A DNA stretch of 64,000 nt, taken from NCBI GenBank assembly GCA_021772615.1, contig JAJFLQ010000107.1, positions 19,924-83,923 on the forward strand, given 5' to 3'. Both the position numbers and the translations under genes were made by a program. Shown here in pieces: positions 15,499 to 47,497 of this stretch (positions are counted from its first letter, which is position 1; each line of letters opens with the position of its first letter). The notes under the pieces were generated by a model, which made no database searches, was not told the origin of the DNA, and saw only the letters and a program-made list of their open reading frames with translations. The stretch comes from Verrucomicrobiota bacterium. Its GTDB lineage: Bacteria; Verrucomicrobiota; Lentisphaeria; JABSQK01; JAJFLO01.

Positions 15499-15726
15499 AG
15501 CCCGGACGTGCCGATTCGACGGCGCGTTCGAACGTGAATAAGGTTGAAGACAGCGAGATTCGCTCGTATATTATATTTTTCGGAATTCGGTAGGCCAGTA
15601 CCACCGATCCGTCCAGAGTTACAATTTTCTACCACGCTCAACTGCGGGCTTGGGTCGGCTACGCGGCGCAACGTACTGTATTCAGGCAGCGTCCGTACTA
15701 AACGCCCGCAAACAAGGAGTCATCCA

Positions 15727-23279: not shown

Positions 23280-23516
23280 TCATACCCTCCTGTTGTTGGT
23301 CGCAGCATCAATTTCTACCGCCTGCGACGGGCTCAACCCGGATGATGTTACATTGATCTCATCAAGCGCACCGAGATCGGCATCGAAAGGCCGGGTTGCC
23401 GCGATTTCTAGCATAACTTGTGTATGTGGCCGTTGCCCGTGGTCAGGAACGGTCATACGGATGTCAACGGCAGATGACGACCGTATTCGGTAATACTGGC
23501 GGTATTCATGAGTCAC
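23280..23516 (-). CDS. possible small protein (78 aa), unknown function
   Basis: It fills the gap between the Stf0-like gene and tag exactly. Its GTG start overlaps the upstream TGA (GTGA), and its stop lies 3 nt before the tag ATG. No recognisable motifs. Confidence 0.3.
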   Translation of the reverse strand: MTHEYRQYYRIRSSSAVDIRMTVPDHGQRPHTQVMLEIAATRPFDADLGALDEINVTSSGLSPSQAVEIDAATNNRRV

Positions 23517-24256
23517 CGACCTTCCTTTTGTTGACGACGATATCGCATCACCCAGTCCTCGTTTACATCGTCACTCTGCCGGCAAAAATAACTCCCGGCC
23601 TTTACAGCACTCGGCACAGGAATGTTCAGGTAGCGAAGGACCGCTGCTACCGATGCATCCACGTCGGCGACAAGTGCCTCGTAAGTGAGCCGATAGGGAG
23701 TGATCCTGTTCGAGTCGAAATAATACTGCCACCCGCGATTGCCGGCCGCTATCATATTTCGGAATCGGCGTATACGCCGCGCGTCGAAACGATACGTGCC
23801 GGTGTAGGCCGCTTGGCGCCGGGAGTCCCACGCATTGCTATCTGTCGCCTTGACCCAGGAAACCGCCTGCCTCAGGGAATCCGCACGGGTCAACCAAATA
23901 TAACGTGTGTTCGATGGCAAGAATTGGTGCAGACCCGCAATCGTTACCTCACGGTGATGGGTGTACGCTGTTATTGCCCCGGCAAGATCGTCCAATTGTT
24001 GCCACATCACCTTGAAACCGCCAACGCCGTTCACGGTTTGCGAGGTAGTAAAAAGGTGCTCAAAGTAGTCCCGAAGGTTCATCGCCTGCCACAGATCCGT
24101 GTTCGGCGGCGTCGCCGCATTTTGGAGTAATTCGTGCGCGGCGGGATGGTCGCCGTATTGCATGCCGGCAATACCGGTGTCAGTCAGAATCGAGCACAAA
24201 TAGGAGCTACCTGTTCGCGGCGTCGTACAAATCAAATAATATACTCGCTGTTTCAT
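23513..24256 (-). CDS. Stf0-type sulfotransferase
   Basis: N-terminal PAPS-binding loop (CTTPRTGSSYLCSIL), the later RADSLRQAVSWVKA pattern, and a ~250-aa length typical of the Stf0 family. Confidence 0.8.
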   Translation of the reverse strand: MKQRVYYLICTTPRTGSSYLCSILTDTGIAGMQYGDHPAAHELLQNAATPPNTDLWQAMNLRDYFEHLFTTSQTVNGVGGFKVMWQQLDDLAGAITAYTHHREVTIAGLHQFLPSNTRYIWLTRADSLRQAVSWVKATDSNAWDSRRQAAYTGTYRFDARRIRRFRNMIAAGNRGWQYYFDSNRITPYRLTYEALVADVDASVAAVLRYLNIPVPSAVKAGSYFCRQSDDVNEDWVMRYRRQQKEGR

Positions 24257-24340
24257 TCGGACACGTTATCGTCCATCCAAGTGAATCTTGGCACGTACGA
24301 CCAATTTTCAACACAAGATTTCTTAACTCGAAGGTGGGCT

Positions 24341-25306
24341 ATGCTTCCCAATTTTCTCGGAATCGGTGCGCATCGTTGCGGAACCAGTTCGCTGCATAAT
24401 TATCTCGGCCAGCATCCCGATATTTTCCTCGCCAGGAAGGAGCCGAGATATTTCGCATTCAAGGACGTTTTTGCAGACAGCGTCACGGAAAGTACGTTGC
24501 TGCCACCCGAAGGATGCACGACGGCAAACAGCCTTCCGTTCGAACCACGTCGATTCTCATCTCTTGCGCCACGGTCCGTTACGACGATGGACGCATACCA
24601 GCAACTATTCAAATATGTGGCGAACGAAAAAGCGATCGGCGAGATTTCTCCGATTTATCTGTACCATCCCTATGCCCACTGGCATATCCGCAAGACCCTC
24701 CCGGACGCGCGACTCATCGTCTCACTGAGAAACCCGGTCGACCGAGCGTACAGCCACGCGGTACGTACGGCTGTAACATCCGGCCGCTGGCACCACCTGC
24801 CAGTGCCGGCGGGGGCCATGACGCCGACCACGATGGCTCAGGAATGGTCTGACGACTATTTCGTCTTTCGCGGACTGTATCACGATCAACTGAAACCATA
24901 CTACGATGTCTTTCCACACGAAAACATAAAAGTCTACCTGTTCGAATCGTTTCGCAGCAATCCCATTGGTGTGATGCAGGACCTATATCGCTTTCTCGGC
25001 GTGAATGACACGTTCGTACCGGAGGTTTCGCAGATACTCAATCGCAGTGGCGTACCTCGGAATCAGCGCTGGTTCACCGTGTTGAACACCACACACCGCT
25101 GGCTCCGGCGCCATCAGAAAATCCTACCCAAGTCCGTGTTGGCGGCCCTGCGTTCGCGGCTGCACGAGCTACTGCTCAAAAACCTTAAACCGTCGCCACC
25201 CCTACCTGCCGAACTTCGCTGCCTGCTGACGCCGGTCTTTCGCGACGACATACTAAAATTGCAGGATCTGGTACAGCTGGATCTTTCATGCTGGCTGCAG
25301 TATTAA
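24341..25306 (+). CDS. sulfotransferase (Sulfotransfer_1/3-like)
   Basis: 5'-PSB loop (GAHRCGTSSLHNYL) and 3'-PB-like segment (VSLRNPVDRAYSH). ATG at 24341 is preceded by AAGGTGG. The track ORF start at 24134 overlaps the neighbouring gene. Confidence 0.85.
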   Translation: MLPNFLGIGAHRCGTSSLHNYLGQHPDIFLARKEPRYFAFKDVFADSVTESTLLPPEGCTTANSLPFEPRRFSSLAPRSVTTMDAYQQLFKYVANEKAIGEISPIYLYHPYAHWHIRKTLPDARLIVSLRNPVDRAYSHAVRTAVTSGRWHHLPVPAGAMTPTTMAQEWSDDYFVFRGLYHDQLKPYYDVFPHENIKVYLFESFRSNPIGVMQDLYRFLGVNDTFVPEVSQILNRSGVPRNQRWFTVLNTTHRWLRRHQKILPKSVLAALRSRLHELLLKNLKPSPPLPAELRCLLTPVFRDDILKLQDLVQLDLSCWLQY

Positions 25307-25375
25307 TGGGCCATCACTTGATTTCTGCAGACGGGATAATAAATGGGGCCAAACCACACAGAACCGTCGCTTCCA

Positions 25376-26116
25376 TCAATCGACAACCAGGAAGCAGGCA
25401 TACGGAGTGGGTTCCAGAATCCGGCAAATCTCGTCATAATTCGCAACGACGTCCCGTTGAGGTTTGGTGACGATTTTCCGGAACTCGCTACAGCCGTCCC
25501 AATGGTGGCGCCGATGCGTCAGTAGAGACGTCAGCCGGCCCATTTCACCCGCGACATTGGCCCGCAACGCGTCATACGTTATCGCGACAACGCGGTTCGG
25601 CAGAAGCCTGCAAAGCACCTTGAAGTTTCGCAGTCTCCGTTGATGTCTACGAATTCTGCGAACAAGTGTTTTGGGATTCAAATAGATTGATTCGACCTCG
25701 ATCGTCTGCCGGGTGCTCCACTGGTTTGTCTCTCTGGCTACCGTCATCGATATGATCACATCGAGCGTATTCTCGCGCATAAGATGAATGATCACGTATC
25801 GGTCGCGAACGAATTTTAACAGGATCTCCGGGTACATCACGAGCTGGTTGTACATCAGCTTGAAACCTACAGGCCCGCCATCCCGCGACGCCGACGCAAC
25901 GAGATCCAGGTATCGCAGAACGCGCCAGGGTCGACAACAGTCTCCGACTTCCACGCAATACGCGTAATGCGCCGGCGTCGTCTCGCGCCGACTGCCGGGA
26001 TTCAATGGTTTATTGAACAACTCGGGAAATATCGTAATACCGGGAATCTTCGCGATGAGGTCCAACAACCATGTGGACCCGCTTCGTTGTGTCGACAACA
26101 GGCAAAATCGTGTCAT
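25376..26116 (-). CDS. sulfotransferase family protein (Stf0-like)
   Basis: N-terminal loop LSTQRSGSTWLLDLI, then HLMRENTLDVIISMTVA. 246 aa. Confidence 0.7.
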   Translation of the reverse strand: MTRFCLLSTQRSGSTWLLDLIAKIPGITIFPELFNKPLNPGSRRETTPAHYAYCVEVGDCCRPWRVLRYLDLVASASRDGGPVGFKLMYNQLVMYPEILLKFVRDRYVIIHLMRENTLDVIISMTVARETNQWSTRQTIEVESIYLNPKTLVRRIRRHQRRLRNFKVLCRLLPNRVVAITYDALRANVAGEMGRLTSLLTHRRHHWDGCSEFRKIVTKPQRDVVANYDEICRILEPTPYACFLVVD

Positions 26117-26204
26117 TACATCGCCTCAGGCATTCGTATGATCAACCGCAGGCGGTGCGTGCCGGCGGTAAAACACGACCTGTTTCTTTCACGTCTGTTG
26201 GCTG

Positions 26205-27572
26205 TCAGATTGGCACGATCCAGTCGTCTGGATTGCAGCTCGGCCGTAACATCAGTTTAATGCGCCTGCGAAGTCGATCGGGTATCGCCAACACCAGCGG
26301 CCTTATACCGCGTCGAACCATTTTGCTGCTTGACCGTGCATACCGCAGGATCCGCCGCCCGTAGCGCGTCCCAAGAAATAGCTTGACCAACCACATCTCC
26401 AAAACTCGCTGTGCACGTATGGGACGTAAACAAGGCGACGGTCGAATCGAATCGCCTGCGGGCCTGGCATAGCGACCGGCTGCAAGATCGCCTTCGGCCT
26501 GCGCGAAAACACGCTGGTATGCATCGATCATGAGGTCGGTGTGGTACCCTTCATTCACCATCGCGTGTGCTCGTTCGCCCATCACCTGCAAGGCCATACG
26601 ATCGTGATACAGCGCAGCAATGCGATCGGCAAATGCTGCCGTATCGCCAACAGAAACGCGATAACCGTTGTCACCATCGATCACAAGCTGACGCACACCG
26701 CTGGGTATATCGCATACGATCGGTACGCAACCGCAGGCCATTGCCTCAAGCAGGCACAATGGCATGCCCTCGAACTCTGCAGGCAACACCACGATGTCGT
26801 GCGACCGATACAATTCATCAAGCTGCCGCGGACCGACTATTCCTGTAAATGTGACGGCACCGCAAGCGACCAAATCAAGCGACCGGTGTTTCAGCTGCGC
26901 CTCATCATCGCCACTGCCGCAAATGGTAAGCGTTGCCCGCATATCGCAACGCTGTAGCGCACGCATGATTTCCGGTAGGTCGAGAACACGTTTCTGGTAC
27001 TGCTGCAATCGGCCGGCATATATCAAACGGATCGGCCGGTCGGTGGCACGACACCTGCGACGCGGCATGCTCGGGACCGGGATGCAGTTCGGGATCACAT
27101 GCACACGTTCGGCGACCTCTGCGTTTGCCGCAACAACACGGTCACGGATATGATCACTTACTGCGACGATCGCATTCCAGTATCGCCCAAGTCGATGAAC
27201 ATGCTCGTAATGAAGGGGATCGTCGCTCTGTACCGTACCGGCAACAATCACATCGCGTGACAACATAGAACTCACGCACGAATACGCATAGTCATATTGC
27301 GGAATGTATGTGCACGGCGCATGCGCTTCCAGAACCGAACGAAAATAATTCCAGCGATCCGGCCAGGTGCGAAACGGGCGCATATCCAGAATCTCGGTTT
27401 TAATGTCCTCTGGATCTTCAAGCGCCGTCGAGCAATGCGCATAGCCGTTCGTGACGACGACTTTTGCATTGACACCGGTAGCAGTCAGCCCTCGAAGCAG
27501 ATGGACGGCTTGCGTATTGCAACCGCTGAGCTCCCAATTGGGCGTTGATAGTATTACTGTTCGTTGTCGCAC
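26205..27572 (-). CDS. glycosyltransferase family 4 with basic C-terminal extension
   Basis: GT-B motif (AEFEGMPLCLLEAMACGCVPIV) plus about 80 extra Arg-rich residues at the C-terminus. Confidence 0.85.
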   Translation of the reverse strand: MRQRTVILSTPNWELSGCNTQAVHLLRGLTATGVNAKVVVTNGYAHCSTALEDPEDIKTEILDMRPFRTWPDRWNYFRSVLEAHAPCTYIPQYDYAYSCVSSMLSRDVIVAGTVQSDDPLHYEHVHRLGRYWNAIVAVSDHIRDRVVAANAEVAERVHVIPNCIPVPSMPRRRCRATDRPIRLIYAGRLQQYQKRVLDLPEIMRALQRCDMRATLTICGSGDDEAQLKHRSLDLVACGAVTFTGIVGPRQLDELYRSHDIVVLPAEFEGMPLCLLEAMACGCVPIVCDIPSGVRQLVIDGDNGYRVSVGDTAAFADRIAALYHDRMALQVMGERAHAMVNEGYHTDLMIDAYQRVFAQAEGDLAAGRYARPAGDSIRPSPCLRPIRAQRVLEMWLVKLFLGTRYGRRILRYARSSSKMVRRGIRPLVLAIPDRLRRRIKLMLRPSCNPDDWIVPI

Positions 27573-27799
27573 TGTACGGGCGGTCCCTTCTACACCAGCG
27601 GCACAGGTACTTGTCGCCGGTAAGCTTCAATGTCGATATACGAAACATCACAGCAAAACTGTAAACGGAGTGTATTCAAACAACTGCGGCGACAATAGCG
27701 CGAAGCCTTCCCGTTGTGTAGCTATGATAAGTGGCTATATTGGTTGGAGCTGAACACGTCGTTGATTCCGTCTGCCTCCAACGCCGTAGGGCCAGGAGA

Positions 27800-29002
27800 A
27801 TGACTGTGCCACCGACAATTAATATTGCGACGTCACTGGACGAAAATTACGCGATCGGCTCGCTCGTGATGATCAAGTCGCTATTGGTAAATCTGGATCG
27901 TTCGACAAAGATCAACCTTTTCCTGTTCGAAGACAACCTGGATGAGGAAACGAAACTATTTCTCGAACGAACGTGGACAGACCGCAGCATTTGTATTACA
28001 TGGCTATGCCCGCAAACTGAAGGGCGGCTCGACAATGTCCGGATGGGCGGCTATGCGGGAGTGCAGGCAACGTATTACCGTTTGTTCATCGGCGACCTGT
28101 TGCCCGCAAATGTCAACAGGGTCATTTACCTCGACGCGGATTTGGTGATCGATCACGATATCAGCGAATTATGGCGATTGGATGTATCCGATTGCGTGTT
28201 GCGGGCGGTGCAGGACGGGATTACGCCTTATGCGCAATGTGCTCTGCCGCACATGCCCGACGACGTCGATGCCACCGCACTGATTCCATATTTCAATGCC
28301 GGGTTGATGCTGATCAACCTGGAAAACTGGCGCAGAGAAAATATTGGAGACCGTGCGCTGGCGGCCGCCAGAACCTATCAACGCGCGTTTCGATACTGGG
28401 ACCAGGATGCACTGAATTACTGCCTGATCGGCCGCTGGGAAAACCTTTCACCCTGTTGGAATCGGGCAACGCTATGGGACGCGGTGCCGGATGATTCGTA
28501 CTTTCCGTATAGCGCCGAACAATTGGTGGCAGCCAGAAAATCACCGCGGGTAATCCATTGTCTCTGCTACCCGAAACACTGGCACTTTCCAGGGAGTACA
28601 CAGGCGGAGTCACGCTTCTTCCACTATCTTGACATGACCGCGTTACATGGCTGGCGGCCGCGGGCAACCCGGTTCGAACATATGGTCGAAACCCTGGCGC
28701 GACGACATCGTACCTGCGTACAGCTTCTATCGATGGTGCGAAAGGCGGCCAAGGCTCACCGAGCACCAGCACGGTATGTGCCGTACGTATTTTGTCAGTT
28801 CTTCCGTTACCCCTGGACGATTCTCTCCGTGCCGCTACACATTCTTCTGTCACCGATGCATTATCGCGGACGGCGCGTTACCGAATCGATTTTCGGACGG
28901 CTTCGAAAACAGGCTCCGCGCATCGCCGATATCGCGCGCAAGTTCCGTGATGAGAACGCGGTATCGTCCAAGCACCGTTGCATGGCGGCCAACTCACCCT
29001 GA
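27800..29002 (+). CDS. glycosyltransferase family 8
   Basis: GT8 motifs: DENYAIGSLV, DxD (YLDADLVI), FNAGLMLINL. The ATG at 27800 is preferred; an alternative GTG lies at 27731. Confidence 0.85.
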   Translation: MTVPPTINIATSLDENYAIGSLVMIKSLLVNLDRSTKINLFLFEDNLDEETKLFLERTWTDRSICITWLCPQTEGRLDNVRMGGYAGVQATYYRLFIGDLLPANVNRVIYLDADLVIDHDISELWRLDVSDCVLRAVQDGITPYAQCALPHMPDDVDATALIPYFNAGLMLINLENWRRENIGDRALAAARTYQRAFRYWDQDALNYCLIGRWENLSPCWNRATLWDAVPDDSYFPYSAEQLVAARKSPRVIHCLCYPKHWHFPGSTQAESRFFHYLDMTALHGWRPRATRFEHMVETLARRHRTCVQLLSMVRKAAKAHRAPARYVPYVFCQFFRYPWTILSVPLHILLSPMHYRGRRVTESIFGRLRKQAPRIADIARKFRDENAVSSKHRCMAANSP

Positions 29003-29122: not shown

Positions 29123-30028
29123 TTACGTGCCGCCTTCGCCCTGCAACGCCTTGCTTTCGGTGATGAAAGCATCCCAACTCTGATGCCGCTCGTCAGGGTC
29201 TTTGGCCAGGATTTTGTCGACCAACGCTGAACATCCCTTTGAGACGTCGGCGTTCTTCTCGATTACGGGAACGGGTGTTTCGGTAACATGTTTCTGCATC
29301 AACAACATCAACGACTGATTCACAAACGGCAATTCTCCGGTCAACGCCTGGTACATCACGATTCCGAGAGAATAAAGGTCACTGCGAAAATCCTGATTGT
29401 CTGCTTTAATCTGCTCGGGGCTCATGTACTCCGGGTTACCGATTGTAAGGCCGGCGCCGGTCAGACTCAAATCGCCCCCCCCCTCGTCCATTTCCTTGGC
29501 AATCCCCAGCCCCGACAATTTTGCGGAACCGGAATGGGTGACAAAGATATTCTGGGGCCGCAAATCACGGTGAAGCAGCCGGCGTTCCGACCAGAGATAC
29601 TGAAGGACTTCGGCGACGTCGACAGCGATTGAGAGGGCATAATCTTCGACCAGACGTGTCTCGCGCTTTAGCAGATCGATCAGCCACAGGCCGTCTTCGT
29701 AATCCGTTACGATAAAGTATTTATCGTCAATTTTTCCGGAATCAATCGAGGATATAAGATTCCGATGGCGCAGTGAACCGAGCAATTCGACCGCCTGCTT
29801 GAAGCGAATCACGGACTCTTCGTTTGCGGCTACGGAGCCGGTGAGTATTTCGATGCGAACAAGTACCTGACGCGGTATGCAGTAAGCCAGATAGATGTCG
29901 CCGAGGTGGCTTTCGCCGATCTTGTCACCGAGTTTGTAGTCGGCGCCGAAAGACGGACGATCGCGGTAAGTCGTCCACAGCGACTGTGACGCACCAAATT
30001 TATGGAAGAGATTCCTGAGAAAACTCAT
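29123..30028 (-). CDS. Ser/Thr kinase-like protein with degenerate catalytic motifs (predicted pseudokinase or atypical kinase)
   Basis: Kinase fold markers are retained (HRDLRPQN, GNPEYMSPEQ). The Gly-loop reads IGESHLGD, VAIK is replaced by VRIE, and DFG by GLG. Confidence 0.85.
   Translation of the reverse strand: MSFLRNLFHKFGASQSLWTTYRDRPSFGADYKLGDKIGESHLGDIYLAYCIPRQVLVRIEILTGSVAANEESVIRFKQAVELLGSLRHRNLISSIDSGKIDDKYFIVTDYEDGLWLIDLLKRETRLVEDYALSIAVDVAEVLQYLWSERRLLHRDLRPQNIFVTHSGSAKLSGLGIAKEMDEGGGDLSLTGAGLTIGNPEYMSPEQIKADNQDFRSDLYSLGIVMYQALTGELPFVNQSLMLLMQKHVTETPVPVIEKNADVSKGCSALVDKILAKDPDERHQSWDAFITESKALQGEGGT
29475..29483. repeat. G9 homopolymer (coding strand) inside the kinase-like CDS
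   Basis: C9 on the plus strand, read directly. It encodes the GGG of DEGGGD in the activation-segment region. Confidence 0.95.
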
Positions 30029-30168
30029 CGGCGACAGTGTGTACGACAGAAGATGTCAATAAGAGGAGAATAGCGGGGGGTTACCCGGCTGGGCCGACTC
30101 CAACGTTGAGGTGCGCGAAAGACTCTTCCATAATTGTAGATTGGCGAATTGACGACGGGCCGGCGCCG

Positions 30169-31278
30169 TCATCCGCTGCCCTTGATCACCAGCAGAATAA
30201 TGATAACGAACACCACAACCGCAACGGCAATACCGATCATAGCGCCAGGAGACTTGGAAACGCCGGCGCCGGAAGCCCCGCTACCCGAGTTGTCGGAAGG
30301 CGTTGCCGCAGACTTGCCGCCGGTTGCGAGAACATTCTTGGCCTCATCAATAAGTTCCTGCCAACTCTGATACCGGTCCTCCGGGTTCTTGGCAAGCATC
30401 TTATCGATCAGCGCGGAGCAACCGTCGGAGATAGCGGAGTTTCGTTCCTTTACAGGTACAGGGATCTCGTCCATGTGCTTCTGCATCAACAAGATCGGAG
30501 CGTCCTCAACAAACGGCAGTTCTCCCACCAACGCTTCATACATTACGACCCCGAGAGCATACAGGTCGCTGCGGAAATCAAGATCCTCCGAGGCGCGAAT
30601 CTGCTCCGGGCTCATGTATTCGGGTGTACCGATAGTGAACCCTACGCCAGTGAGTCCAAGTGACTGGCCCTCCGATGATTTGGCAATCCCGAAACCTGTG
30701 AGTTTGGCCACATTATTCTTGGTGATGAAGATATTCTGCGGCTTCAGATCGCGATGAAGAAGTTTTCTTTCGTTCCAGGTATAGTGCAGGACTTCGGCGA
30801 TGGTAATTAAGTATTGAAGCGCGTCTTTCTCGCCGACCGTCTGTTGATTCTGCAACGTTTCCTGAAGACTTGAACCGGTTTCGTACGCGGTGACCAGAAA
30901 ATAGGTATCGCTGTCCTGCCCCGCCTCAATTGCAGAAAGAAGGTTGTCGTGCTTGAGAGAACTCATCAGCTCGATTTCCTGGAGGAACCGGGTAACCGAT
31001 TCTTCATCGGACGTTACGGACCCTGACAAAATCTCGATGCGTACCATCTGGCCTGTATCTTCCTTATTCGCAACGAAGATATCGCCAAGGTGGCTTTCAC
31101 CGATCTTACGATCCAACTTATAGCCGTTCCCGATTATGACGCCCGGACAGATTCCCAAATCATCCGGCAACGCCGTCTCTTTGCCGCATGACGGGCATGT
31201 AGCCGACTTTTGCCTCAGTCCCTTTAATTCAACCTGAATCACATTGCTGCAATCCGGACAGGTATACGGAACAATCAT
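30169..31278 (-). CDS. zinc-ribbon / kinase-like / C-terminal TM protein, paralogue of the 29123-30028 gene
   Basis: N-terminal CxxC...CxxC ribbon (CPDCS...CPSCG). It carries the same degenerate motifs (IGESHLGD, VRIEIL, GFG) with HRDLKPQN retained. C-terminal TM anchor. GGAGGA RBS lies 9 nt upstream. Confidence 0.85.
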   Translation of the reverse strand: MIVPYTCPDCSNVIQVELKGLRQKSATCPSCGKETALPDDLGICPGVIIGNGYKLDRKIGESHLGDIFVANKEDTGQMVRIEILSGSVTSDEESVTRFLQEIELMSSLKHDNLLSAIEAGQDSDTYFLVTAYETGSSLQETLQNQQTVGEKDALQYLITIAEVLHYTWNERKLLHRDLKPQNIFITKNNVAKLTGFGIAKSSEGQSLGLTGVGFTIGTPEYMSPEQIRASEDLDFRSDLYALGVVMYEALVGELPFVEDAPILLMQKHMDEIPVPVKERNSAISDGCSALIDKMLAKNPEDRYQSWQELIDEAKNVLATGGKSAATPSDNSGSGASGAGVSKSPGAMIGIAVAVVVFVIIILLVIKGSG

Positions 31279-31378: not shown

Positions 31379-32926
31379 TTACCCCTTTTTCGTTCTTTTT
31401 TTTAATGCCCGGTCGCCCCCGACATCAGGTATGATATCGTTCGCGGCATTCAGGCGCTCAGCAAGAAGAACAATGGTCTTTCCCAGCCACGGCGGCAACT
31501 TGGTAAGATGCTGGGTGAATAAATCCTGGGTCAGCACAAGTACCTCGGTTTCTTCCGTGGCCGTCACCGTGGCCGACCGCGTTTCTGACGTTATAAGCGA
31601 CATCTCGCCAACAATGTCACCGGCCTCTAATGTACAAATTGTGACGGACTGGCCGTCACGCTTCTTATCAACACGCACTTTACCGCGCACGATGATGTAG
31701 GATTCGCATCCGATTTCACCTTCCCGTATCAACACATCACCGGCACTGAAATATCGATGGCAAAAGTTGACATCGCCACGAAGGAAATCGTCGATATCCG
31801 CGATCAATTCATCGACGTCCTGATACCGGTCGACCTTGGACTCGGCCAATGCCTTCATGATGATGCGCAACAAATCTTCGGGGATACGCCACCGGCCGGT
31901 ATCCAACTCGTCAGGAGGCACCAACCGATGGCCGCGTGCCAGACCGACGATCTCGTTAATGTCGTCACCAATATACGGAGGATAGAAAGAGAAGATGCTG
32001 TACAGTGTCGCGCCAAGAAGAAAGATATCGCTGCGCTCGTCGAGTTCGGCAACATCGCCAAGGGCCTGTTCGGGCGACATGTAGGCAGGTGACCCCTTAA
32101 CCACCCCGATCTCGGTAGTCAACCAGTCGTAATCACGATGGTCTCCGGAACAGGGATCACCGCCTCTGCCAAGTTCCTCATCAAGCCGTTTCGCCAGCCC
32201 CCAGTCCATCAACAACACCTCTCCGTACTCACCGACCATAATGTTGTGGGGCTTGATATCGCGATGTAGAATTTGCTTTGAATGCGCAAAAGCGACGGCG
32301 TCGCATACCTTGCGAAAGATGCCCAGCAATACGAACATGTCGTAGCGTTCAAGATACTGGGGATCACCCAGTTCAAGCTTCTGCAATATGACGTTCAGCG
32401 GTTCCCCGCTCATGAGCTTCATGGTAAAAAAAATCCCGTGTTCAGGGAAGAATCCAAGATCATGCACGGGAATTATGTTGGGATGTTCGAGCTGTCCGGT
32501 AATCTTCGCTTCCTTGATAAAGCTGTCGATCGCACGGAGGTCATGCTTCAATTCCGGCAAGATCACCTTCATGGCAGAGTGACGGTTGAAATCTTTGTCA
32601 TAAACGTAGTAGACCGCGCCCATTCCGCCGGCCGTGAGTCGCTTTTCGATTGTGTACTTGCCCTCGGTGATCTCACGCTCGATAGTCTGTTTGAATCGCG
32701 CCTCCTCCTCCCTGAGATCAGACACACCAGACGTGCTCGTGTTGTCGCGACGACTTGATAATGCGGCGGAGATCACCGAGCTGCGCTTTAGCACCTGCGA
32801 ACGCGATATGATCACAGAGTCCGCGCCAGTGGTTCGCTTTTGCTCAATCTCCGTCTTTCTCGATTTGCGTTTCGACGCCATGATTTTTCGGGATTTCAGT
32901 GCCGGTAACCAATAAATTTCTTGCAA
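31379..32926 (-). CDS. Ser/Thr protein kinase fused to a cyclic nucleotide-binding domain
   Basis: Canonical kinase motifs: GGMGAVY, AMKVI, HRDIKPHN, DWG, SPAYMSPEQ. C-terminal cNMP-binding pattern: GDVLIREGE...GDIVGEMSLI...RSATVTA. Confidence 0.9.
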   Translation of the reverse strand: MQEIYWLPALKSRKIMASKRKSRKTEIEQKRTTGADSVIISRSQVLKRSSVISAALSSRRDNTSTSGVSDLREEEARFKQTIEREITEGKYTIEKRLTAGGMGAVYYVYDKDFNRHSAMKVILPELKHDLRAIDSFIKEAKITGQLEHPNIIPVHDLGFFPEHGIFFTMKLMSGEPLNVILQKLELGDPQYLERYDMFVLLGIFRKVCDAVAFAHSKQILHRDIKPHNIMVGEYGEVLLMDWGLAKRLDEELGRGGDPCSGDHRDYDWLTTEIGVVKGSPAYMSPEQALGDVAELDERSDIFLLGATLYSIFSFYPPYIGDDINEIVGLARGHRLVPPDELDTGRWRIPEDLLRIIMKALAESKVDRYQDVDELIADIDDFLRGDVNFCHRYFSAGDVLIREGEIGCESYIIVRGKVRVDKKRDGQSVTICTLEAGDIVGEMSLITSETRSATVTATEETEVLVLTQDLFTQHLTKLPPWLGKTIVLLAERLNAANDIIPDVGGDRALKKRTKKG

Positions 32927-33296: not shown

Positions 33297-36200
33297 ATGT
33301 CATCATTTGACTTGCAGCCCGGACAAACGGTTAGCCACTTTCGGATGGAAAAAAAGCTTGGCGAAGGTGGAATGGGAGCCGTGTACCTGGCCGAGGACCT
33401 GACGCTGTCGCGACGTGTCGCAATAAAATTCATGAGTCGCAGCCTGCTGGTGCAGCAGGGGAACAAGTCGGTCCGGGAAGGACTGGAAAAGCGTTTCATC
33501 CGCGAGGCCAAAAGTGCCGCCGCTATCAACCATCCCAATCTGGCACAAATCTATGAAGCCAATTTCGAATCCGAGGACTGGTATATCGCCATGGAGTTCA
33601 TTGATGGTGATTCCCTCTATGACCTGATTACGGACGGCAAAACATACACGATCGAGGAGATAATAAATATCTGCCGGCAGACCGTGAGCGGCCTTGATTT
33701 CGCATGGGAAAATTACAAGATCGTGCACCGCGACATCAAGCCGCACAACATTATGCTCACCAAGACCAATCTGGTGAAAATCGTTGACCTCGGCCTGGCG
33801 AAACCACTGGAGAGTGAACTGACGGACTTCGAGATGCCCGACCTTACGGGTGCCGGCACACCGATAGGTACACCGCAATACATGGCGCCGGAACAGGCAA
33901 CCGGTCAGAAAGACATCAATTTCCTTGTCGATATTTTCGCGCTCGGCGCCACACTGTACGAGGTCTGCTGCGGCAAAAAGGCGTTCTCAGGCAATACCGC
34001 ACCGATGATCTACATGAGCCAGGTGCAGAAAAAGTACAAGCCATTGCGTGAATTGCGCGAGGACACGCCGGATTTTCTGGTTGATCTTGTCGACCGCATG
34101 CTCGAGCCGAAACCGGAAAACCGAATTGGCTCATATTCCGAAATCCTTGACGTACTCAGCTCGGCATCGTACAGCGCCGGTAGCGCTGACTTAACCGGCG
34201 CCATGACCGGGGCAACATCGGCCTCGGCGCCCTCTCCCACAATCGCCGGCCATATGTCGGCAAAGACGATTGGTATGGATCAGTTTACGGTCTACCACGC
34301 GACCGACAAGCTGATCAGAGATCGCTATCGCATCCTCAAACCCATCGGCAAGAGCCGCGCGGGCATGGTGTATCATTGCATGGATACCAAGCTTAGCGTC
34401 GAATGTATTGTAAAAAGCCTGTTCCCTGGTCGCGAGTATTCCGAGAACGAAATGCCGCGCATTAAGGAAAATTTCCAGAGACTGATGGGGTTTTCACATC
34501 CCAATCTCGTGCAAATCAGGGATCTTCAGGAAGACGAAGAAACCGGCGAGTTTTTCGTGGTCATGGAGTTGCTGGACGGCCACAATCTGCGCGACTACAC
34601 GCATCGCCTGAAAAATGAGCTGGACACCATAGATATCAAGTCGATTCTTCCGATCCTGCACCTCATCGCCAAGGCACTCGACAATGTCAGCAAGACCGTC
34701 GGCGTGATCCACCATGATCTGTTGCCCGAAGATATTTACCTCTTGCAAAACGATTCCAAGATAAAGTTTCTGGACTACGGCATCACCGGGCCGGCGCCGG
34801 ACCACACAATCAACGCCGATCCTGCGGAATACTACAAGTATCCCATGGCGTCGCCGGATTATATGTCACCGGAGTTGTGGCAGCATAAATCCGGCAGCCG
34901 CCAGTCGGATCAGTACTCCCTGGCAGTCATTATCTATGAAGTACTGGCGGACAGGCTGCCGTTCTGGTTGAAAGATCCAATGCCTGAAGACACAGACGCT
35001 AAAGGTAAGAGCGATATTCCGCTGGTGGAAAAACAGCTGAAATTTCTGTATGAACGCGTTCAGAGCGAGCCACCGAAACCGTTGCCGTTCCTGAAAAAAC
35101 ACGAGAACGCGGTGCTGCTCAAAGCGTTGGCGAAAGATCCACATGAGCGTTATTCAAGCTGCGAGGCGTTCATCACCGCGATGGAAAAGAAAGGTGGCCT
35201 GCCCATTGGTGCTGTTGCGGCGCTTTCCGGAATGGCCCTGGTGGTCGCGGTCGGCGCATTGATCTTCATGAAGCCTGCACCGGAGGAGCCCCCCGCGGCA
35301 GCCGCGGCCATACCGCATTCTCCTGCACCGGCACAACCGAAAGCCGTTTCGCCGGCGCCGCAGACACCCGCGCCGGCGGCTGTTAAGACGCAAGTCGCAC
35401 CGCCTCCCAAAACGCCCGAACCACCGCCCGAGCCGATTCAGACCGCAGCGGTTACGCCGTCCCCGGCCCAGGAATCCGCGACCGCCGCGCAACAGGAAAA
35501 GATCGCCGCCCAGGCCAAAACCGTGGCGGAGTTGAAGCGTGCGTACGCGGCACTCCGCGAGTTGTTACAGGCAGACCCGGTCTCGGCCGAAAGCATTCCG
35601 GATGCAGATGCGATTCTTGCCGAGGCCGATAAGCTGGCAGCAAAAAGCGACTTTGTTCCGGCGATCAAACAGTACAAGGAAGCAATCGCGACGGGGAACA
35701 ATATCATCAAGCGGACGAAGGAACTCAAGGTAAAACAACAACTGGATCAAATGAAGGAGGCGACGACCCTGCAGCGCACACTCACGGAACAACGCGATGC
35801 ATTGTTGAAAAACGAAGAGGTTGCGGCCAGAATGGAACCCATTAATACCCTGGCCGCGGAAGCCGACGCCTTGCTGGAAGAAGAAAACTTTACGGAAGCG
35901 ATTCGACGATATCGCACCGCGATTGATCGTGCACACGACATCTCAAACGAATTTAATCGTGAAATGCGAGAAACAGCGGAGGAATTGAAGCCGAAAGTCA
36001 CCGAGGCACGGAACCAGCTGAACCGCTATCGCGGCTTGTCTCCCGAGATCTCCGAAAATATCGTCAAGGTCGATGTCACCATGTCGCTGGCACGCGAATC
36101 AATAAATCGCGAGGAATTCTCATTCGCCGTAGAGCAGTACAATAAGGCGCTGGAGGAATGCAAAGCGATCCTGACGATGGCTGAAAACAAATTCCAGGCC

Positions 36201-36866
36201 AAATCGGGAGCGGACTTTACAGACCCGAAGACAGGTATGGCATTTGTCTGGATCGAGTCCATGAAGATGTGGGTCGCCAAATACGAAGTCACCAACGCAG
36301 AGTATCGTAATTTCAAACCGACCCACGACAGCAAGAAGGCTATGGGCTTCTCACTCAATCGGGATCGGCAACCGGTCCTTGAGGTATCGTATTACGACGC
36401 AGTGGGGTTTTGCCAGTGGCTGAATGCCGTATCGCTGCCCGACGTAAAGGCACCGGAGGGCTACTCCTATCGCCTGCCGTCGCGCGAGGAGTGGGAAACG
36501 ATCGCTCGCTGCGGTGAAGAACGTCTGTATCCATGGGGCAACAGCTGGCCGCCGCCATACGGTAATTTCGGCAACCAGGAGATGTTCCCCAGCAACTGGC
36601 AGCTGGACGGTTACGCAGACGAGCACACGGTGACCTGTGAGGTGACGGAGAGCGGCGCCAACGAATGGGGGTTATTCGGCGTGGCCGGCAACGCCTGGGA
36701 ATGGACAACCGACCTGAAAGACGGAAAGCGAGCTGTCCTTGGTGGCGATTGGACAAGCGTCACGCGAAGCACGCTGATCATTACGCTGGAAAGTGCATAC
36801 GCACCGATGGACGAACCATTTGATAATATCGGCATACGTTTAGTCTTGGCGCCGGAAGAAAAGTAA
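33297..36866 (+). CDS. tandem-kinase-domain membrane protein with C-terminal FGE-sulfatase (SUMF1-like) domain
   Basis: Domain 1 is canonical (GEGGMGAVY, VAIK, HRDIKPHN, DLG). Domain 2 (aa ~343-628) is degenerate (HHDLLPED, DYG). These are followed by a TM, a Pro-rich segment, coiled coils, and an FGE pattern (YEVTNAEYRNF, YRLPSREEWE, NAWEWT). Confidence 0.9.
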   Translation: MSSFDLQPGQTVSHFRMEKKLGEGGMGAVYLAEDLTLSRRVAIKFMSRSLLVQQGNKSVREGLEKRFIREAKSAAAINHPNLAQIYEANFESEDWYIAMEFIDGDSLYDLITDGKTYTIEEIINICRQTVSGLDFAWENYKIVHRDIKPHNIMLTKTNLVKIVDLGLAKPLESELTDFEMPDLTGAGTPIGTPQYMAPEQATGQKDINFLVDIFALGATLYEVCCGKKAFSGNTAPMIYMSQVQKKYKPLRELREDTPDFLVDLVDRMLEPKPENRIGSYSEILDVLSSASYSAGSADLTGAMTGATSASAPSPTIAGHMSAKTIGMDQFTVYHATDKLIRDRYRILKPIGKSRAGMVYHCMDTKLSVECIVKSLFPGREYSENEMPRIKENFQRLMGFSHPNLVQIRDLQEDEETGEFFVVMELLDGHNLRDYTHRLKNELDTIDIKSILPILHLIAKALDNVSKTVGVIHHDLLPEDIYLLQNDSKIKFLDYGITGPAPDHTINADPAEYYKYPMASPDYMSPELWQHKSGSRQSDQYSLAVIIYEVLADRLPFWLKDPMPEDTDAKGKSDIPLVEKQLKFLYERVQSEPPKPLPFLKKHENAVLLKALAKDPHERYSSCEAFITAMEKKGGLPIGAVAALSGMALVVAVGALIFMKPAPEEPPAAAAAIPHSPAPAQPKAVSPAPQTPAPAAVKTQVAPPPKTPEPPPEPIQTAAVTPSPAQESATAAQQEKIAAQAKTVAELKRAYAALRELLQADPVSAESIPDADAILAEADKLAAKSDFVPAIKQYKEAIATGNNIIKRTKELKVKQQLDQMKEATTLQRTLTEQRDALLKNEEVAARMEPINTLAAEADALLEEENFTEAIRRYRTAIDRAHDISNEFNREMRETAEELKPKVTEARNQLNRYRGLSPEISENIVKVDVTMSLARESINREEFSFAVEQYNKALEECKAILTMAENKFQAKSGADFTDPKTGMAFVWIESMKMWVAKYEVTNAEYRNFKPTHDSKKAMGFSLNRDRQPVLEVSYYDAVGFCQWLNAVSLPDVKAPEGYSYRLPSREEWETIARCGEERLYPWGNSWPPPYGNFGNQEMFPSNWQLDGYADEHTVTCEVTESGANEWGLFGVAGNAWEWTTDLKDGKRAVLGGDWTSVTRSTLIITLESAYAPMDEPFDNIGIRLVLAPEEK

Positions 36867-41200: not shown

Positions 41201-41774
41201 GCGAATGAGCGAAAGCAACTGCGTCGCAGACTTTCTGGAATATCGTCAACAGCCGCGACAGCGGGTAGTGTGCCACCAGAACGGGATCCTTCTTCCTGAT
41301 CCCGACAAGTATGTGTTTGAGCGTCACACCGTCGACATACTTCATCGCATAATAGATGTTTCCATGCTCATTTATCCCCAGATCATAAACCGGCACTATG
41401 CCGGGATGCTGGAGTTGACCCGTTATCTGTCCCTCCTCGATAAATCGTATGAGATTGTCCTGCGAATTACGCTTACCTTCGAGCAGGACCTTCATCGCTA
41501 CGGTCCGTTTAATGTTCAGATCCGTGGCGCTGAGAATCTCGCCCATACCTCCCCTGGCGACCCGCTCACCGAGTTCGTATTTCTGAAACTCCATGTCCGA
41601 GAGCGATTGGCCGTCTTCATTACGGTGCGGTGATTGGGATGCGGCGCCGGCCGCGGCGGATGGCTTCAACTTTCCGCTGAGGAACTGGGTGATCGTCGAT
41701 TGAAAATCGTCATAATCGGGATCCGGCTGAAGACCATCGGCCTCGCGATCTGGATAATCGATATCCTCCATCAC
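38295..41774 (-). CDS. Ser/Thr protein kinase with TM, coiled-coil and C-terminal leucine-rich repeat array
   Basis: Kinase motifs: GGMGEIL, VAMKVL, HRDLKPEN, DWG, GTPNYMSPEQ. One TM helix, a coiled coil, and about 400 aa of LRRs. The start (GTG at 41774 or ATG at 41771) overlaps the KamA stop codon. Confidence 0.9.
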   Translation of the reverse strand: MMEDIDYPDREADGLQPDPDYDDFQSTITQFLSGKLKPSAAAGAASQSPHRNEDGQSLSDMEFQKYELGERVARGGMGEILSATDLNIKRTVAMKVLLEGKRNSQDNLIRFIEEGQITGQLQHPGIVPVYDLGINEHGNIYYAMKYVDGVTLKHILVGIRKKDPVLVAHYPLSRLLTIFQKVCDAVAFAHSRGVIHRDLKPENIMVGNYGEVMVMDWGLAKLLNQSQSGLATIRTELSGLRSKSGELGLESASHDLSTFSEVSTFDGLESMVHRDESDSLHTIDGQILGTPNYMSPEQATGRVDVTGTTADIYALGGILYHILCLRPPIVGKSFTEMMVNIVRGRIDAPATFNESPEAGTTASAAGTGSSASVNGDVEGRAGGSTPTGAASRNAGRTMRFPHCPAGKIPESLSAVAMKALSLRPSDRYPDVLSLQQDLEAYQGGFATTAEDAGFLKQVVLLVKRNLAVAGISLVSCTGLILVITVSIVQLRNKNVELLQRHTQVQQAKDEVDRQNLQLEEQKFILQDQRAALQATVDELVAEKRRTRVERIAKEEAQLLKVEEKILRRKEEQKHDQLSRLSAPEFIKKGELLAEEQNWSAALATVAVALELDPGVPGGWYLKGRLDFGALSFSDVITSLSRAERADPLDLARLAQQFDNKAEVPGIADLRELSRIMRERGDLVLSRRMYRLSLEAELDVIQKISACREQLQRDNPGSPQIRLQFSVDGDKARVDLSHNPGLRTIDAVTGLSLSELDLSFTDVTLLSAIRGGDVTSVHVGPTPLVDIYHLSGLSLSVLHLHDWWPTDYLTLTQLTRAEIHYHAHDAKGLSGDFTHFVELTGARLYLHGPAFPDLRRLTDVPISHLSLEDTEIDDLGPLRDQSLVYLHADGTGIRSLRPLRKMMLQHLSIGNTPVKDLRHLVGQPIQHLNLSGTRIDSIDDLRAMPLRHLNISKTNVTDFSVLRDLPVTELMIGHLPIVDLAMIKEKKLEALYIDGTYVTDIRPLSGMPLKRLNISGTRVSDLRPLASAPLTYLALEGTMVTSLEASGYMPLRYLNIANTGIRDISPLRGRHLTYLDMANTQVADLGPLAGMPIQELSLQGCNNVRSLAPLSTCSRLRRLIVPSGVRDMDVLRQLPQLEYISDSGSLGDLKRSASDFWASR
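38358..39581 (-). repeat. protein-level leucine-rich repeat array (about 22-24 aa period)
   Basis: Recurrent LxxLxLxxTxVxDLxPLxxxP units (for example LRHLNISKTNVTDFSVLRDLP, LKRLNISGTRVSDLRPLASAP). Boundaries are approximate. Confidence 0.7.
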
Positions 41775-44320: not shown

Positions 44321-44550
44321 CGCGAGTGCTCTCGCATGGTAGCGCCCCGCCTTCCCACGTACACCGGCAACAACACATGAATCATTCAGGGTAGCGGCCT
44401 GTTGTCCCCGGCCCTCTTCTGGAAACACCCCACGCAGACCCGCAACGGCATTGGAACCTACCCGCCTTGCTCTTGTCCTATCCTGTTCACATCCAGGATG
44501 TGAGCCACCACAGAGAAACCAGGGATCCAGAATACGGAAGGACTGTTGCC

Positions 44551-45573: not shown

Positions 45574-45606
45574 CAAGGGCCGCAATCATACAGCGCCGAT
45601 AACGTC

Positions 45607-46488: not shown

Positions 46489-46493
46489 GGCCC

Positions 46494-47495: not shown

Positions 47496-47497
47496 AC

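Follow-up and report, generated by a model that had tools for sequence, protein, structure and literature searches.

A membrane-anchored Hanks-type pseudokinase family of Lentisphaeria and other PVC bacteria with a glutamate at the ATP-binding lysine position

In the window analyzed here, which denotes the whole 64-kb stretch of DNA, two neighboring genes (ORF A and ORF B; Table 1) encode proteins of the Hanks-type (ePK-like) protein kinase superfamily in which, unusually, a residue of opposite charge occupies the site of the ATP-binding Lys. Both belong to a monophyletic clade with a remodeled active site. On balance, we lean toward the view that this clade is a new PVC pseudokinase family, whose members act as non-catalytic, membrane-anchored and probably phospho-regulated partners of neighboring active kinases. 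Its motif pattern, which was previously undescribed and would be the eighth for bacterial pseudokinases, is so far confined to MAGs of Lentisphaeria and other PVC bacteria.

Table 1 Positions of the pseudokinase genes, their motifs and the adjacent kinase genes in the window. Motif positions in ORF A and ORF B were checked by translation.
Feature	Position	Strand	Description
ORF A	29123-30028	-	301 aa; pseudokinase domain only (29180-29938); soluble
ORF A, IGESHLGD	29897-29920	-	
ORF A, VRIE	29849-29860	-	
ORF A, HRDLRPQN	29549-29572	-	
ORF A, GLG	29504-29512	-	
ORF B	30169-31278	-	369 aa; Zn ribbon, Hanks-type pseudokinase domain, linker, C-terminal tail-anchor TM
ORF B, Zn ribbon	31171-31278	-	Residues 1-36; C7, C10, C28, C31
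ORF B, pseudokinase domain	30355-31122	-	Residues 53-308
ORF B, G-loop IGESHLGD	31081-31104	-	
ORF B, VRIE	31033-31044	-	Glu82 codon 31033-31035
ORF B, HRDLKPQN	30733-30756	-	
ORF B, GFG	30688-30696	-	
ORF B, activation segment	30601-30696	-	
ORF B, C-terminal TM helix	30175-30246	-	Hydropathy 3.56; AF2 helix 345-368
ORF C	31379-32926	-	515 aa
ORF C, kinase domain	31826-32656	-	Canonical Hanks kinase
ORF C, cNMP-binding domain	31511-31756	-	Pfam
ORF D	33297-36866	+	1189 aa; divergently transcribed
ORF D, kinase domain 1	33342-34130	+	Canonical
ORF D, kinase domain 2	34299-35189	+	Conservatively degenerate
ORF D, remainder		+	TM, coiled-coil/TPR, FGE-sulfatase domain (36252-36845)

The original prediction of two kinase-like paralogues at this locus was confirmed by full-domain matches of both proteins to Pfam Pkinase (PF00069; E = 4e-37 for ORF A and 1e-46 for ORF B) and by their identity of 56% over 275 aa. 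The best sequence match among solved structures was PknB of M. tuberculosis (phmmer; E = 5e-40), and the AF2 model of ORF B, a complete and confident kinase fold (pLDDT 89.2), matched PknB in Foldseek with a TM of 0.92 and an rmsd of 1.8-2.2 A. Active-site residues were assigned by the phmmer alignment to PknB and an HMM-based column table. In both ORFs, GESHLG of the Gly-rich loop lies opposite PknB GFGGMS, with Ser in place of the second Gly, and VRIE of beta3 lies opposite VAVK, with Glu in place of Lys40. At the DFG site, PknB Asp156 is replaced by Gly (GFG in ORF B, GLG in ORF A). All three substitutions had been predicted to be shared, as had the retention of the catalytic loop (HRDLKPQN in ORF B, HRDLRPQN in ORF A) and of the (T/N)PEYMSPEQ motif, which are both present together with the P+1 loop. 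The alphaC Glu is kept in ORF B and changed to Ala in ORF A, a loss that had been missed before. Under the operational definition of a pseudokinase, according to which at least one of VAIK-Lys, HRD-Asp and DFG-Asp is missing, both ORFs are pseudokinases (Lys to Glu and Asp to Gly, with the HRD-Asp retained), and the sequence indicators most likely point to a loss of phosphotransfer and canonical ATP binding. The PknB residues R10, L33 and D76 of the back-to-back N-lobe dimer correspond to G52, T74 and E118 in the alignment as read by hand, and a PknB-style interface of this type does not seem to be obviously conserved.

The agreement between ORF A and ORF B is by itself weak evidence for selection, because the substitutions are older than the duplication, and it is the clade that carries the argument. 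Homologues with the Glu/Gly signature formed about 50 protein clusters, which were monophyletic in 96/100 bootstraps of an NJ tree based on 262 columns and a small outgroup; the signature thus marks a clade, as had been proposed. All members with a name are Lentisphaeria or other PVC MAGs, and the sister of the clade is a canonical kinase (P0038). Conservation was assessed for 46-49 members, all from MAGs or metagenomes and with identities down to about 40%, in comparison with 71 canonical relatives. Glu occupies the beta3 position in 45/46 members (Gln in 1/46), Gly the DFG-Asp position in 49/49, and S/T the position of the second G-loop Gly in 46/46, whereas all 71 canonical relatives possess Lys, Asp and Gly, respectively, at these sites. 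As every pair showed saturation at synonymous sites, only pN << pS and relative branch lengths were used and no dN/dS. With pN values of 0.18-0.40, the data indicate purifying selection on the family, in line with the original prediction that selection, not decay, has shaped a family of atypical kinases or pseudokinases. Given clade-wide conservation and monophyly, decay is excluded for the family and for ORF B.

Conservation is distributed unevenly along the domain. The entropy in the clade was 0.48 bits for the activation loop (canonical relatives: 2.09), 0.05 bits for the P+1 loop, 0.93 bits for the alphaF-alphaG/alphaG region (canonical: 1.97) and 1.48 bits for beta1-beta3 (canonical: 1.52), where the apparent conservation is inflated because the canonical set spans a broader phylogenetic range than the clade, and contrasts between segments correct for this only partly. 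Much of the catalytic machinery persists, with HRD in 49/49 members, the catalytic-loop Lys in 48/49, Asn in 43/49, the P+1 Thr in 48/49 and the alphaC Glu in 46/48, and G1 and G3 of the G-loop are largely retained. A pure scaffold has no obvious need of the HRD-Asp, Lys and Asn; their retention thus speaks against the partner reading and makes residual or unusual catalysis conceivable. The family could accordingly comprise atypical active phosphotransferases that arrange the nucleotide or metal in a non-canonical way, a possibility that we take seriously but consider unlikely. Such enzymes might bind ATP independently of Mg as in CASK, form a new cation site from the beta3 Glu82 and the alphaC Glu101, transfer a non-phosphate group or act on a non-protein substrate. 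The essentially invariant substrate-binding P+1 loop would suit this explanation, and CASK, WNK, ULK4 and SelO illustrate that ‘missing’ residues are no guarantee of inactivity. Moreover, DLHK pseudokinases, which keep HRD and have GFG, may bind ATP non-canonically in the view of a recent review (PMC12599244).

However, a Glu at beta3 would repel the phosphates of ATP. In DLHK and ULK4, basic residues make up for the loss, whereas a comparison of the clade with its canonical relatives revealed no clade-specific, conserved Lys or Arg in the N-lobe that could compensate. A WNK-style Lys relocated to the G-loop or beta2, which the original prediction had named as contrary evidence, is absent, since the G3 position is Gly in 46/46 members; the Lys of the KIGE segment lies at a variable beta1 site that is equally often basic in canonical kinases. 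The eukaryotic CASK binds ATP without Mg and has GFG like the new family, but it retains the beta3 Lys; a Mg-independent kinase of the CASK type was therefore rejected for the clade with its Glu. The surroundings of the nucleotide have changed as well: neither A nor V occurs at the C-spine Ala/Val position (R21, Q9, T8, S4), the canonical M/L at the beta7 C-spine position is replaced by aromatic residues (F37/Y7), the gatekeeper M by T35/S9, and V/L/I in the hinge by Glu (Glu133, 45/48). As the adenine-contacting C-spine Ala site is variable and often bulky or polar, adenine binding would not be under selection, and the adenine pocket, with its bulky Phe/Tyr at beta7, looks unconstrained or occluded. 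The loss of Asn in 6/49 members and the N-lobe strands without extra conservation also argue against an atypical kinase.

Three acidic positions are clade-specific and near-invariant (E82 in 45/46, E133 in 45/48, D/E66 in 46/46), and the alphaC Glu persists even though its partner Lys is gone. Such residues might form a ligand-sensing pocket, in which Glu82, Glu101 and Glu133 would bind a small cationic molecule, a metal or a basic peptide of a partner and thereby act as a conformational switch, and the change of the gatekeeper from Met to Thr/Ser could open a back pocket. This explanation, whose sole basis is residue identities, appears quite improbable to us: D/E66 probably points away from the pocket according to general kinase geometry, PknB also has a Glu there, and the C-spine Arg/Gln together with the beta7 Phe may simply fill the pocket. 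A related scenario, which we judge rather unlikely, holds that the family is active and that its metal or cation site was shifted from DFG to the N-lobe acids by the joint changes at beta3, DFG and the hinge (Val to Glu), with the HRD-Asp, Lys and Asn and the alphaC Glu preserved. The proteins would then show an unprecedented mode of nucleotide binding or be receptors of a cationic ligand, within a membrane cascade that leads from cNMP via a cNMP-dependent kinase to the pseudokinase.

Taken together, the alignments indicate that the nucleotide pocket is remodeled throughout, with an unusually conserved activation loop and alphaG region. According to the partner reading, which we prefer, the single origin of the clade would lie in an active kinase with Zn ribbon and tail anchor, whose nucleotide pocket was remodeled in a coordinated manner: Glu replaced the beta3 Lys, Gly the DFG Asp and Ser a Gly of the G-loop, the C-spine Ala was lost, and an aromatic residue at beta7 and Glu in the hinge were gained. 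ORF B would most likely lack canonical ATP binding and phosphate transfer; it retains the kinase fold, the RD-type catalytic loop, the near-invariant activation loop with Thr210 and a conserved hydrophobic alphaG surface. Thr210, the equivalent of PknB Thr171, is present in 49/49 members. The Arg of the HRD motif is the residue that binds the phospho-Thr of the activation loop in RD kinases. Trans-autophosphorylation of PknB reportedly proceeds through an alphaG-mediated front-to-front dimer, and the PknB mutant structures 3F61 and 3F69, which are among the structure matches, stem from the work on this dimer. ORF B may dock, possibly via alphaG, with ORF C and/or domain 1 of ORF D, and the partner may phosphorylate Thr210 in the activation loop in trans. 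ORF B could thus serve as a membrane-localized, phospho-switchable scaffold, allosteric partner or signal receiver.

The N-terminal CxxC...CxxC segment of ORF B was modeled by AF2 as four beta strands (pLDDT about 87-91) and gave weak Pfam matches to Zn_ribbon_8 and DUF5817 (E about 0.005); no Pfam domain was found in ORF B apart from these and the kinase. CPxC...CxxC occurs in about 27/46 clade members, and a tail anchor in nearly all full-length ones. The ancestral architecture of the family consists of Zn ribbon, pseudokinase and C-terminal tail anchor, and ORF B is a typical member. The original prediction had recognized both appendages in ORF B but regarded them as additions; they are ancestral and were lost by ORF A. 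Only about 1-4 residues follow the TM helix of ORF B, and the protein therefore has no extracytoplasmic domain. The tail anchor would hold it on the cytoplasmic face of the membrane.

ORF A has neither Zn ribbon nor TM. It deviates at 14/64 clade-invariant positions (median of the other members: 1); among the changes are Ala for the alphaC Glu, Arg for the catalytic Lys, Leu for the DFG Phe and Asn for the P+1 Thr. ORF A also evolves at about three times the rate of ORF B and has no orthologue among 5.8 billion proteins. These features are what a pseudogene in the making might display. On the other hand, its reading frame is intact despite saturated synonymous sites (pS 0.75 vs pN 0.32), its AF2 model is a confident and complete kinase fold (pLDDT 88.9), and the family signature is retained (equivalents of S62, L64, E82, E133, W168, G195, T215 and W306). 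We thus regard decay as very improbable, be it of both genes as functionless, degenerating kinase duplicates or of ORF A alone. ORF A is an old lineage-specific duplicate that has lost the appendages and many of the family constraints, and represents either a sub- or neofunctionalized soluble variant or a gene under relaxed selection.

ORF C is encoded on the strand of ORF B and is located 100 nt upstream of it, and the adjacent canonical kinase with a cNMP domain was described correctly in the original prediction. ORF D itself combines a kinase and a degenerate kinase domain in one chain. Across 12 genomes carrying the pseudokinase gene, a dual kinase of the ORF D type adjoins this gene in divergent orientation in 7/12, a cNMP-kinase is adjacent in 4/12 (with an ORF C-type gene directly upstream in L001, L081 and L084), a CHASE2-cyclase in 4/12, and a REC-kinase together with a kinase-LRR in 1/12. 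One or more of these neighbors occur in 10/12 genomes, while no signaling neighbor was found in L003 and L004 (2/12). A tblastn search with the CHASE2-cyclase of L081 as query detected none within the 64-kb window. The candidate partner kinases are catalytically canonical in all orthologues. ORF C is a candidate active partner of ORF B and ORF D is a second candidate; the signaling module may also contain the CHASE2 nucleotide cyclase in relatives. Given that active kinases and a cyclic-nucleotide cyclase are its usual neighbors, the pseudokinase gene most likely encodes a regulatory partner rather than an enzyme, although adjacency of any single partner in only 4-7/12 genomes weighs against this reading.

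Promoter- and terminator-like matches near the genes did not exceed the shuffle background and gave no operon signal. A Shine-Dalgarno motif precedes ORF B and none was found before ORF A, which is uninformative because just 7/28 confident genes have one. Strong PADLOC matches to PD-T4-6/mad6 said little about a role in defense: all five kinase genes of the window match, the canonical ones with equal or better scores, so that these matches reflect generic kinase-domain similarity and are uninformative.

The conserved neighborhood offers concrete candidate partners, namely the cNMP-binding kinase, the dual kinase/FGE-sulfatase protein and the CHASE2 cyclase. With these, three or four purified proteins would suffice for a direct test of the function of a bacterial pseudokinase, and the module may be a bacterial equivalent of a kinase cascade that depends on cyclic nucleotides.

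Bacterial Hanks-type pseudokinases were recently cataloged as seven families, none with a defined signaling role (PMC12599244). None of these families fits the proteins described here, which are set apart by motif patterns and family descriptions. Our literature search found no paper linking Lentisphaerae to Hanks pseudokinases, and neither the Atlas (10.1101/2025.01.12.632604) nor the review (PMC12599244) mentions PVC phyla, zinc ribbons or cNMP fusions. DLHK shares with the new family the absent VAIK-Lys, the present HRD-Asp and the absent DFG-Asp (GFG), as in the P. aeruginosa example AVLT / HRDLRPAS / GFG (PMC12599244; 10.1101/2025.01.12.632604). However, DLHK proteins are mainly proteobacterial, have no TM and carry C-terminal DEAD-like helicase/DNA2 domains (O'Boyle et al. 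2025, PMC12599244), and they lack the catalytic-loop Asn and have an Arg-rich positive pocket predicted to bind ATP (PMC12599244). The new family, in contrast, keeps the Asn (43/49, and both ORFs), has Glu at beta3, is tail-anchored with an N-terminal Zn ribbon, and occurs in Lentisphaeria/PVC hosts. That the sister of the clade in the tree is a canonical kinase from the same lineage argues for an origin independent of DLHK, with which the clade was compared by description.

PknB and the family have in common the fold (TM 0.92), the RD-type catalytic loop, the equivalent of Thr171 in the activation loop and the P+1 loop. PknB, however, is an active enzyme, a receptor kinase that carries PASTA domains outside the cell and the canonical K40/D156, whereas the new family has both residues replaced and no extracytoplasmic domain. 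Phosphorylation of the pseudokinase domain linked to MviN (MurJ) by PknB, an active Hanks kinase, serves to recruit a partner. This MviN-linked ActPs3 resembles the new family as a membrane-associated bacterial pseudokinase and provides a functional analogy for a phospho-regulated pseudokinase substrate. ActPs3 has lost HRD and DFG, and its activation loop is often absent (10.1101/2025.01.12.632604; PMC12599244), whereas in the new family nothing is conserved more strongly than HRD and the activation loop. The patterns of ActPs1-3/GLW (HRD-Asp lost), DYD (Lys to Arg plus DYD) and CP1 are excluded by the invariant HRD, the GFG and the beta3 Glu. STRAD-LKB1, HER3-EGFR and JAK JH2-JH1 are eukaryotic pairs of pseudokinase and kinase. 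YukC/EssB is a membrane pseudokinase of T7SSb (PMC9600267). There is no homology to these systems beyond the kinase fold, and the partnership proposed here is read from gene neighborhood only; what would unite them with the new family is the use of a dead kinase fold as allosteric partner or scaffold of a kinase or a membrane machine.

The two neighbouring kinase-like genes, ORF A and ORF B, had been predicted to form a tandem pair, and both are indeed encoded on the same strand, exactly at the coordinates given, with full Pkinase matches and 56% identity over 275 residues. The top solved-structure match was the M. tuberculosis kinase PknB (phmmer; E 5e-40), with the ORF B/PknB alignment pairs GESHLG/GFGGMS, VRIE/VAVK, RFLQE/RFRRE, HRDLKPQN/HRDVKPAN and GFG/DFG. 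An independent HMM-based column table assigned PknB Lys40 (beta3), Asp156 (DFG) and Gly20 (G-loop) to Glu82, Gly195 and Ser62 of ORF B, which keeps the HRD motif, both Lys and Asn of the catalytic loop, and the equivalents of PknB Thr171 and P+1 Thr179. Both analyses confirm the original prediction of a retained HRDL(R/K)PQN loop combined with a changed G-loop, beta3 Lys and DFG Asp; motif window coordinates were verified by translation. The zinc ribbon and membrane anchor expected for the second copy are present in ORF B, the former as CPDC...CPSC near the N-terminus and the latter as a hydrophobic helix (residues 345-368) at the C-terminus, and the anticipated neighbouring canonical kinase with a cNMP domain is ORF C.

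Queried with ORF B, a database of 5.8 billion proteins yielded a discrete group of ~50 clusters (240-814 bits, 40-78% identity to ORF B), beyond which scores fell sharply to ordinary kinases of ~31-37% identity. Every sequence is MAG- or metagenome-derived, and the named members and genome matches are Lentisphaeria or Lentisphaerales MAGs and one MAG labelled Verrucomicrobia, which places the host in the PVC group. Within this clade, the beta3 residue is Glu in 45 members and Gln in one, Gly replaces the DFG Asp in 49/49, with F next and G, A or T in third place, and the G-loop Gly2 position is Ser or Thr in 46/46; Lys, Asp and Gly occupy these three sites in all 71 canonical relatives. This Glu/Gly (E/G) signature defines a clade, which was monophyletic to the exclusion of P0038, a near relative with canonical residues, in 96/100 bootstraps (neighbour-joining only, 262 kinase-domain columns). 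The position of P0038 as sister indicates that the clade arose once, from an active kinase. Synonymous divergence was saturated in every pair (pS 0.68-0.94) at a pN of 0.18-0.40, indicating purifying selection on these proteins. Together with the clade-wide Glu and Gly, these values bear out the proposal that the changes reflect selection and not decay, and the family is very probably a selected pseudokinase-type family.

The changes of the nucleotide pocket extend well beyond the three residues originally recognized. The C-spine position of VAIK, A or V in the canonical relatives, is never A or V in the clade (R21, Q9, T8, S4 and others); the beta7 C-spine residue is Phe37/Tyr7 instead of Met/Leu, the gatekeeper Thr35/Ser9 instead of Met, the hinge residue (PknB V95) Glu in 45/48 instead of Val/Leu/Ile, and the residue after G3 always Asp/Glu instead of K/R/V/T. 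Of all the sequence features, the adenine-contacting Ala position, with its variable and often bulky residues, points most strongly to a loss of selection on nucleotide binding. A compensating Lys (KIGE, WNK-style) was not found: Gly occupies the WNK position in 46/46 clade members, the KIGE Lys lies on beta1 at a position variable among canonical and clade sequences alike, and the column comparison of both groups revealed no clade-specific Lys or Arg in the N-lobe. Although the retained HRD/K/N residues and P+1 loop favour an atypical active enzyme, this reading is unlikely given Glu at beta3, the absence of basic residues that could compensate, and an adenine contact under no constraint. That the pocket might sense a cation or ligand, for which its conserved acids are the sole basis, appears improbable.

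ORF B was confidently modelled (AlphaFold2; pLDDT 89.2, pTM 0.80) as a zinc ribbon, a complete kinase fold, a disordered linker and a TM helix, in this order, and its kinase part superimposed on PknB with a TM of 0.92 and an rmsd of 1.8-2.2 A (Foldseek). The activation loop and alphaG are hyper-conserved: entropy in the clade versus the canonical relatives was 0.48 versus 2.09 bits for the activation loop and 0.93 versus 1.97 bits for the alphaF-alphaG loop plus alphaG, compared with 1.48 versus 1.52 bits for beta1-beta3. Among other sites, the clade is specifically constrained at S201, S206, G211 and T215 of the activation loop, at A260, L263, M265, M269 and D270 around alphaG, and at two Trp residues that never vary (W168, W306). 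Thr210, the PknB-Thr171 equivalent, is conserved in 49/49 members, and the HRD Arg is invariant. The invariance of the Asp-Lys-Thr triad (D177, K179, T218) has a possible structural explanation, namely that the three residues form a network holding the activation segment; in ORF A, the K179 and T218 equivalents are both changed.

In nearly all full-length clade members the C-terminal TM helix is followed by just 0-12 residues, so these proteins are tail-anchored, and ~60% carry an N-terminal CxxC...CxxC ribbon. ORF A has neither feature. It sits on a long branch within the ORF B subgroup (70/100 NJ bootstraps; branch dN ~0.31 versus ~0.10 for ORF B) and has changed 14 of 64 clade-invariant positions (other members: median 1, maximum 5); among these changes, Ala replaces the alphaC Glu, Arg the catalytic-loop Lys, Leu the DFG Phe and Asn the P+1 Thr, and three more lie in alphaG. 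Decay is conceivable for ORF A only and is very improbable; although synonymous change is saturated, ORF A keeps an intact frame, and the model of its product (pLDDT 88.9) has the complete kinase fold. No second pseudokinase copy occurred at any related locus examined, and the 5.8 billion-protein database contained nothing closer to ORF A than B-type proteins (<=58% identity). The tandem pair is thus a one-off, in which ORF B is typical of the family and ORF A is a soluble derivative that has diverged, and the substitutions common to both are older than their duplication.

Features of the window and of the related contig L002
Feature	Position	Strand	Description
Ordinary gene content	13-3267	minus	MoxR-DUF58-VWA-VWA-BatD (Bat-like) operon, aa3-type cytochrome oxidase subunits, DUF1559/N-methyl pilin-like proteins (together with 44467-53544)
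CHASE protein	15544-16899	plus	451 aa; CHASE sensor domain, no recognised output domain
Glycan cluster (probable)	23513-29002		three sulfotransferases (Stf0-type, Sulfotransfer_3/1), GT4 and GT8 glycosyltransferases
ORF A	29123-30028	minus	301 aa; full Pfam Pkinase domain, E 4e-37
ORF B	30169-31278	minus	369 aa; full Pfam Pkinase domain, E 1e-46
ORF C	31379-32926	minus	upstream of ORF B; Hanks kinase, C-terminal cNMP_binding domain; DWG replaces DFG
ORF D	33297-36866	plus	1189 aa; two kinase domains, TM, coiled-coil/TPR region, FGE-sulfatase domain
Kinase-LRR	38295-41774	minus	1159 aa; kinase and leucine-rich repeats; kinase HMM match split (51-231, 281-345)
Radical-SAM gene	41771-43030	minus	lysine-2,3-aminomutase-like (Radical_SAM, LAM_C)
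Ordinary gene content	44467-53544	plus	see 13-3267
Kinase-LRR of L002	9198-11618		directly downstream of pseudokinase

Among 12 distinct genomes or contigs, window included, a divergent dual-kinase/FGE-sulfatase gene of the ORF D type adjoins the pseudokinase in seven (window, L001, L005, L006/083, L081, L084, L087), a cNMP-binding kinase of the ORF C type lies directly upstream in four (window, L001, L081, L084), and a convergent CHASE2-nucleotide cyclase gene with stops 6-19 nt apart occurs in four (L001, L081, L007/082, L085/086). L002 has a REC-kinase upstream and a kinase-LRR gene downstream, and L003 and L004 have no signalling neighbour. No CHASE2 cyclase is encoded within the 64-kb window, where the cyclase side is taken by ORF A and the glycosyltransferase/sulfotransferase cluster; this cluster, at the CHASE2 cyclase site of the close relatives L001 and L081, is probably responsible for the synthesis of a sulfated glycan. 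The catalytic residues of ORF C and of domain 1 of ORF D are canonical in every orthologue. Domain 2 of ORF D shows one conserved pattern of degeneracy throughout six orthologues: it retains the beta3 Lys, has the motifs GKSRAG, H[HYGN]D and DYG, and lacks the alphaC Glu and the catalytic-loop Lys/Asn, so that ORF D amounts to a built-in kinase/pseudokinase pair adjoining free-standing pseudokinases.

In RD kinases, the activation-loop phospho-Thr is clamped by the HRD Arg, and PknB trans-phosphorylation proceeds via an alphaG-mediated front-to-front dimer. Taking this together with the features described above, we propose that ORF B may be a membrane-tethered non-catalytic partner, which would dock via alphaG onto ORF C, domain 1 of ORF D or both, and be phosphorylated on Thr210 by the docked kinase. 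This phosphorylation would switch a binding surface of ORF B, or ORF B would allosterically modulate its partner; in relatives, the pseudokinase may act downstream of cNMP from the CHASE2 cyclase. The complete reading, a pseudokinase family plus this partner and phospho-switch model, has in our view a slightly better than even chance of being correct. The interest of the family is moderate, chiefly because the conserved neighbourhood yields a directly testable partner hypothesis.

Elsewhere in the window, the split HMM match of the kinase-LRR protein implies an insertion in its activation segment. The last 4 nt of the radical-SAM gene overlap the kinase-LRR gene start, and the two are therefore probably co-transcribed. 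With a Shine-Dalgarno-like motif upstream of just 7/28 confident window genes, this organism apparently makes little use of SD-led initiation; ORF B is among the few genes with a perfect GGAGG. The content of regions 13-3267 and 44467-53544 is ordinary, and their pilin-like proteins are typical of PVC bacteria.

An exhaustive representative search placed the ORF B family within a larger lineage-specific radiation with the common loop LTGxGFT(I/V)GTPEYMSPEQ. Among its members are proteins in which kinase domains stand in tandem as [degenerate]-[canonical] ahead of a TM tail (P0038, P0121-P0124), zinc-ribbon proteins of ~400-750 aa with the beta3 Lys kept, HRD changed to HRN and DFG to D/N-L/M-G (P0137-P0140, P0147-P0150, P0154, P0161, P0164, P0165, P0171, P0216, P0259, P0261), and beta3 Asn, N/GFD variants (P0146, P0151). 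These distinct degenerate groups sharing one activation loop point to several independent inventions of pseudokinase states within one radiation.

ORF C resembles PKA/PKG in combining a kinase and a cNMP-binding domain, here in a single chain, and in relatives an ORF C-type gene shares a cluster with a CHASE2-Guanylate_cyc gene, which suggests a bacterial pathway from cyclase to cNMP-dependent kinase; the Atlas preprint does not mention kinase-cNMP-binding fusions (10.1101/2025.01.12.632604). Seven families of bacterial pseudokinases (ActPs1-3, GLW, CP1, DYD, DLHK) are catalogued in the 2025 Atlas and a review, which mention neither PVC phyla nor zinc ribbons or cNMP fusions (10.1101/2025.01.12.632604; PMC12599244), and among the papers searched none linked Lentisphaerae to Hanks pseudokinases. 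By motif pattern, DLHK is closest to the ORF B family, with no Lys, HRD kept and GFG. However, as judged from published descriptions, DLHK proteins lack the catalytic-loop Asn and, unlike the ORF B family, have an Arg-rich pocket, carry helicase fusions but no TM, and are mainly proteobacterial. We therefore rate the ORF B family as a new addition among bacterial Hanks-type pseudokinases.
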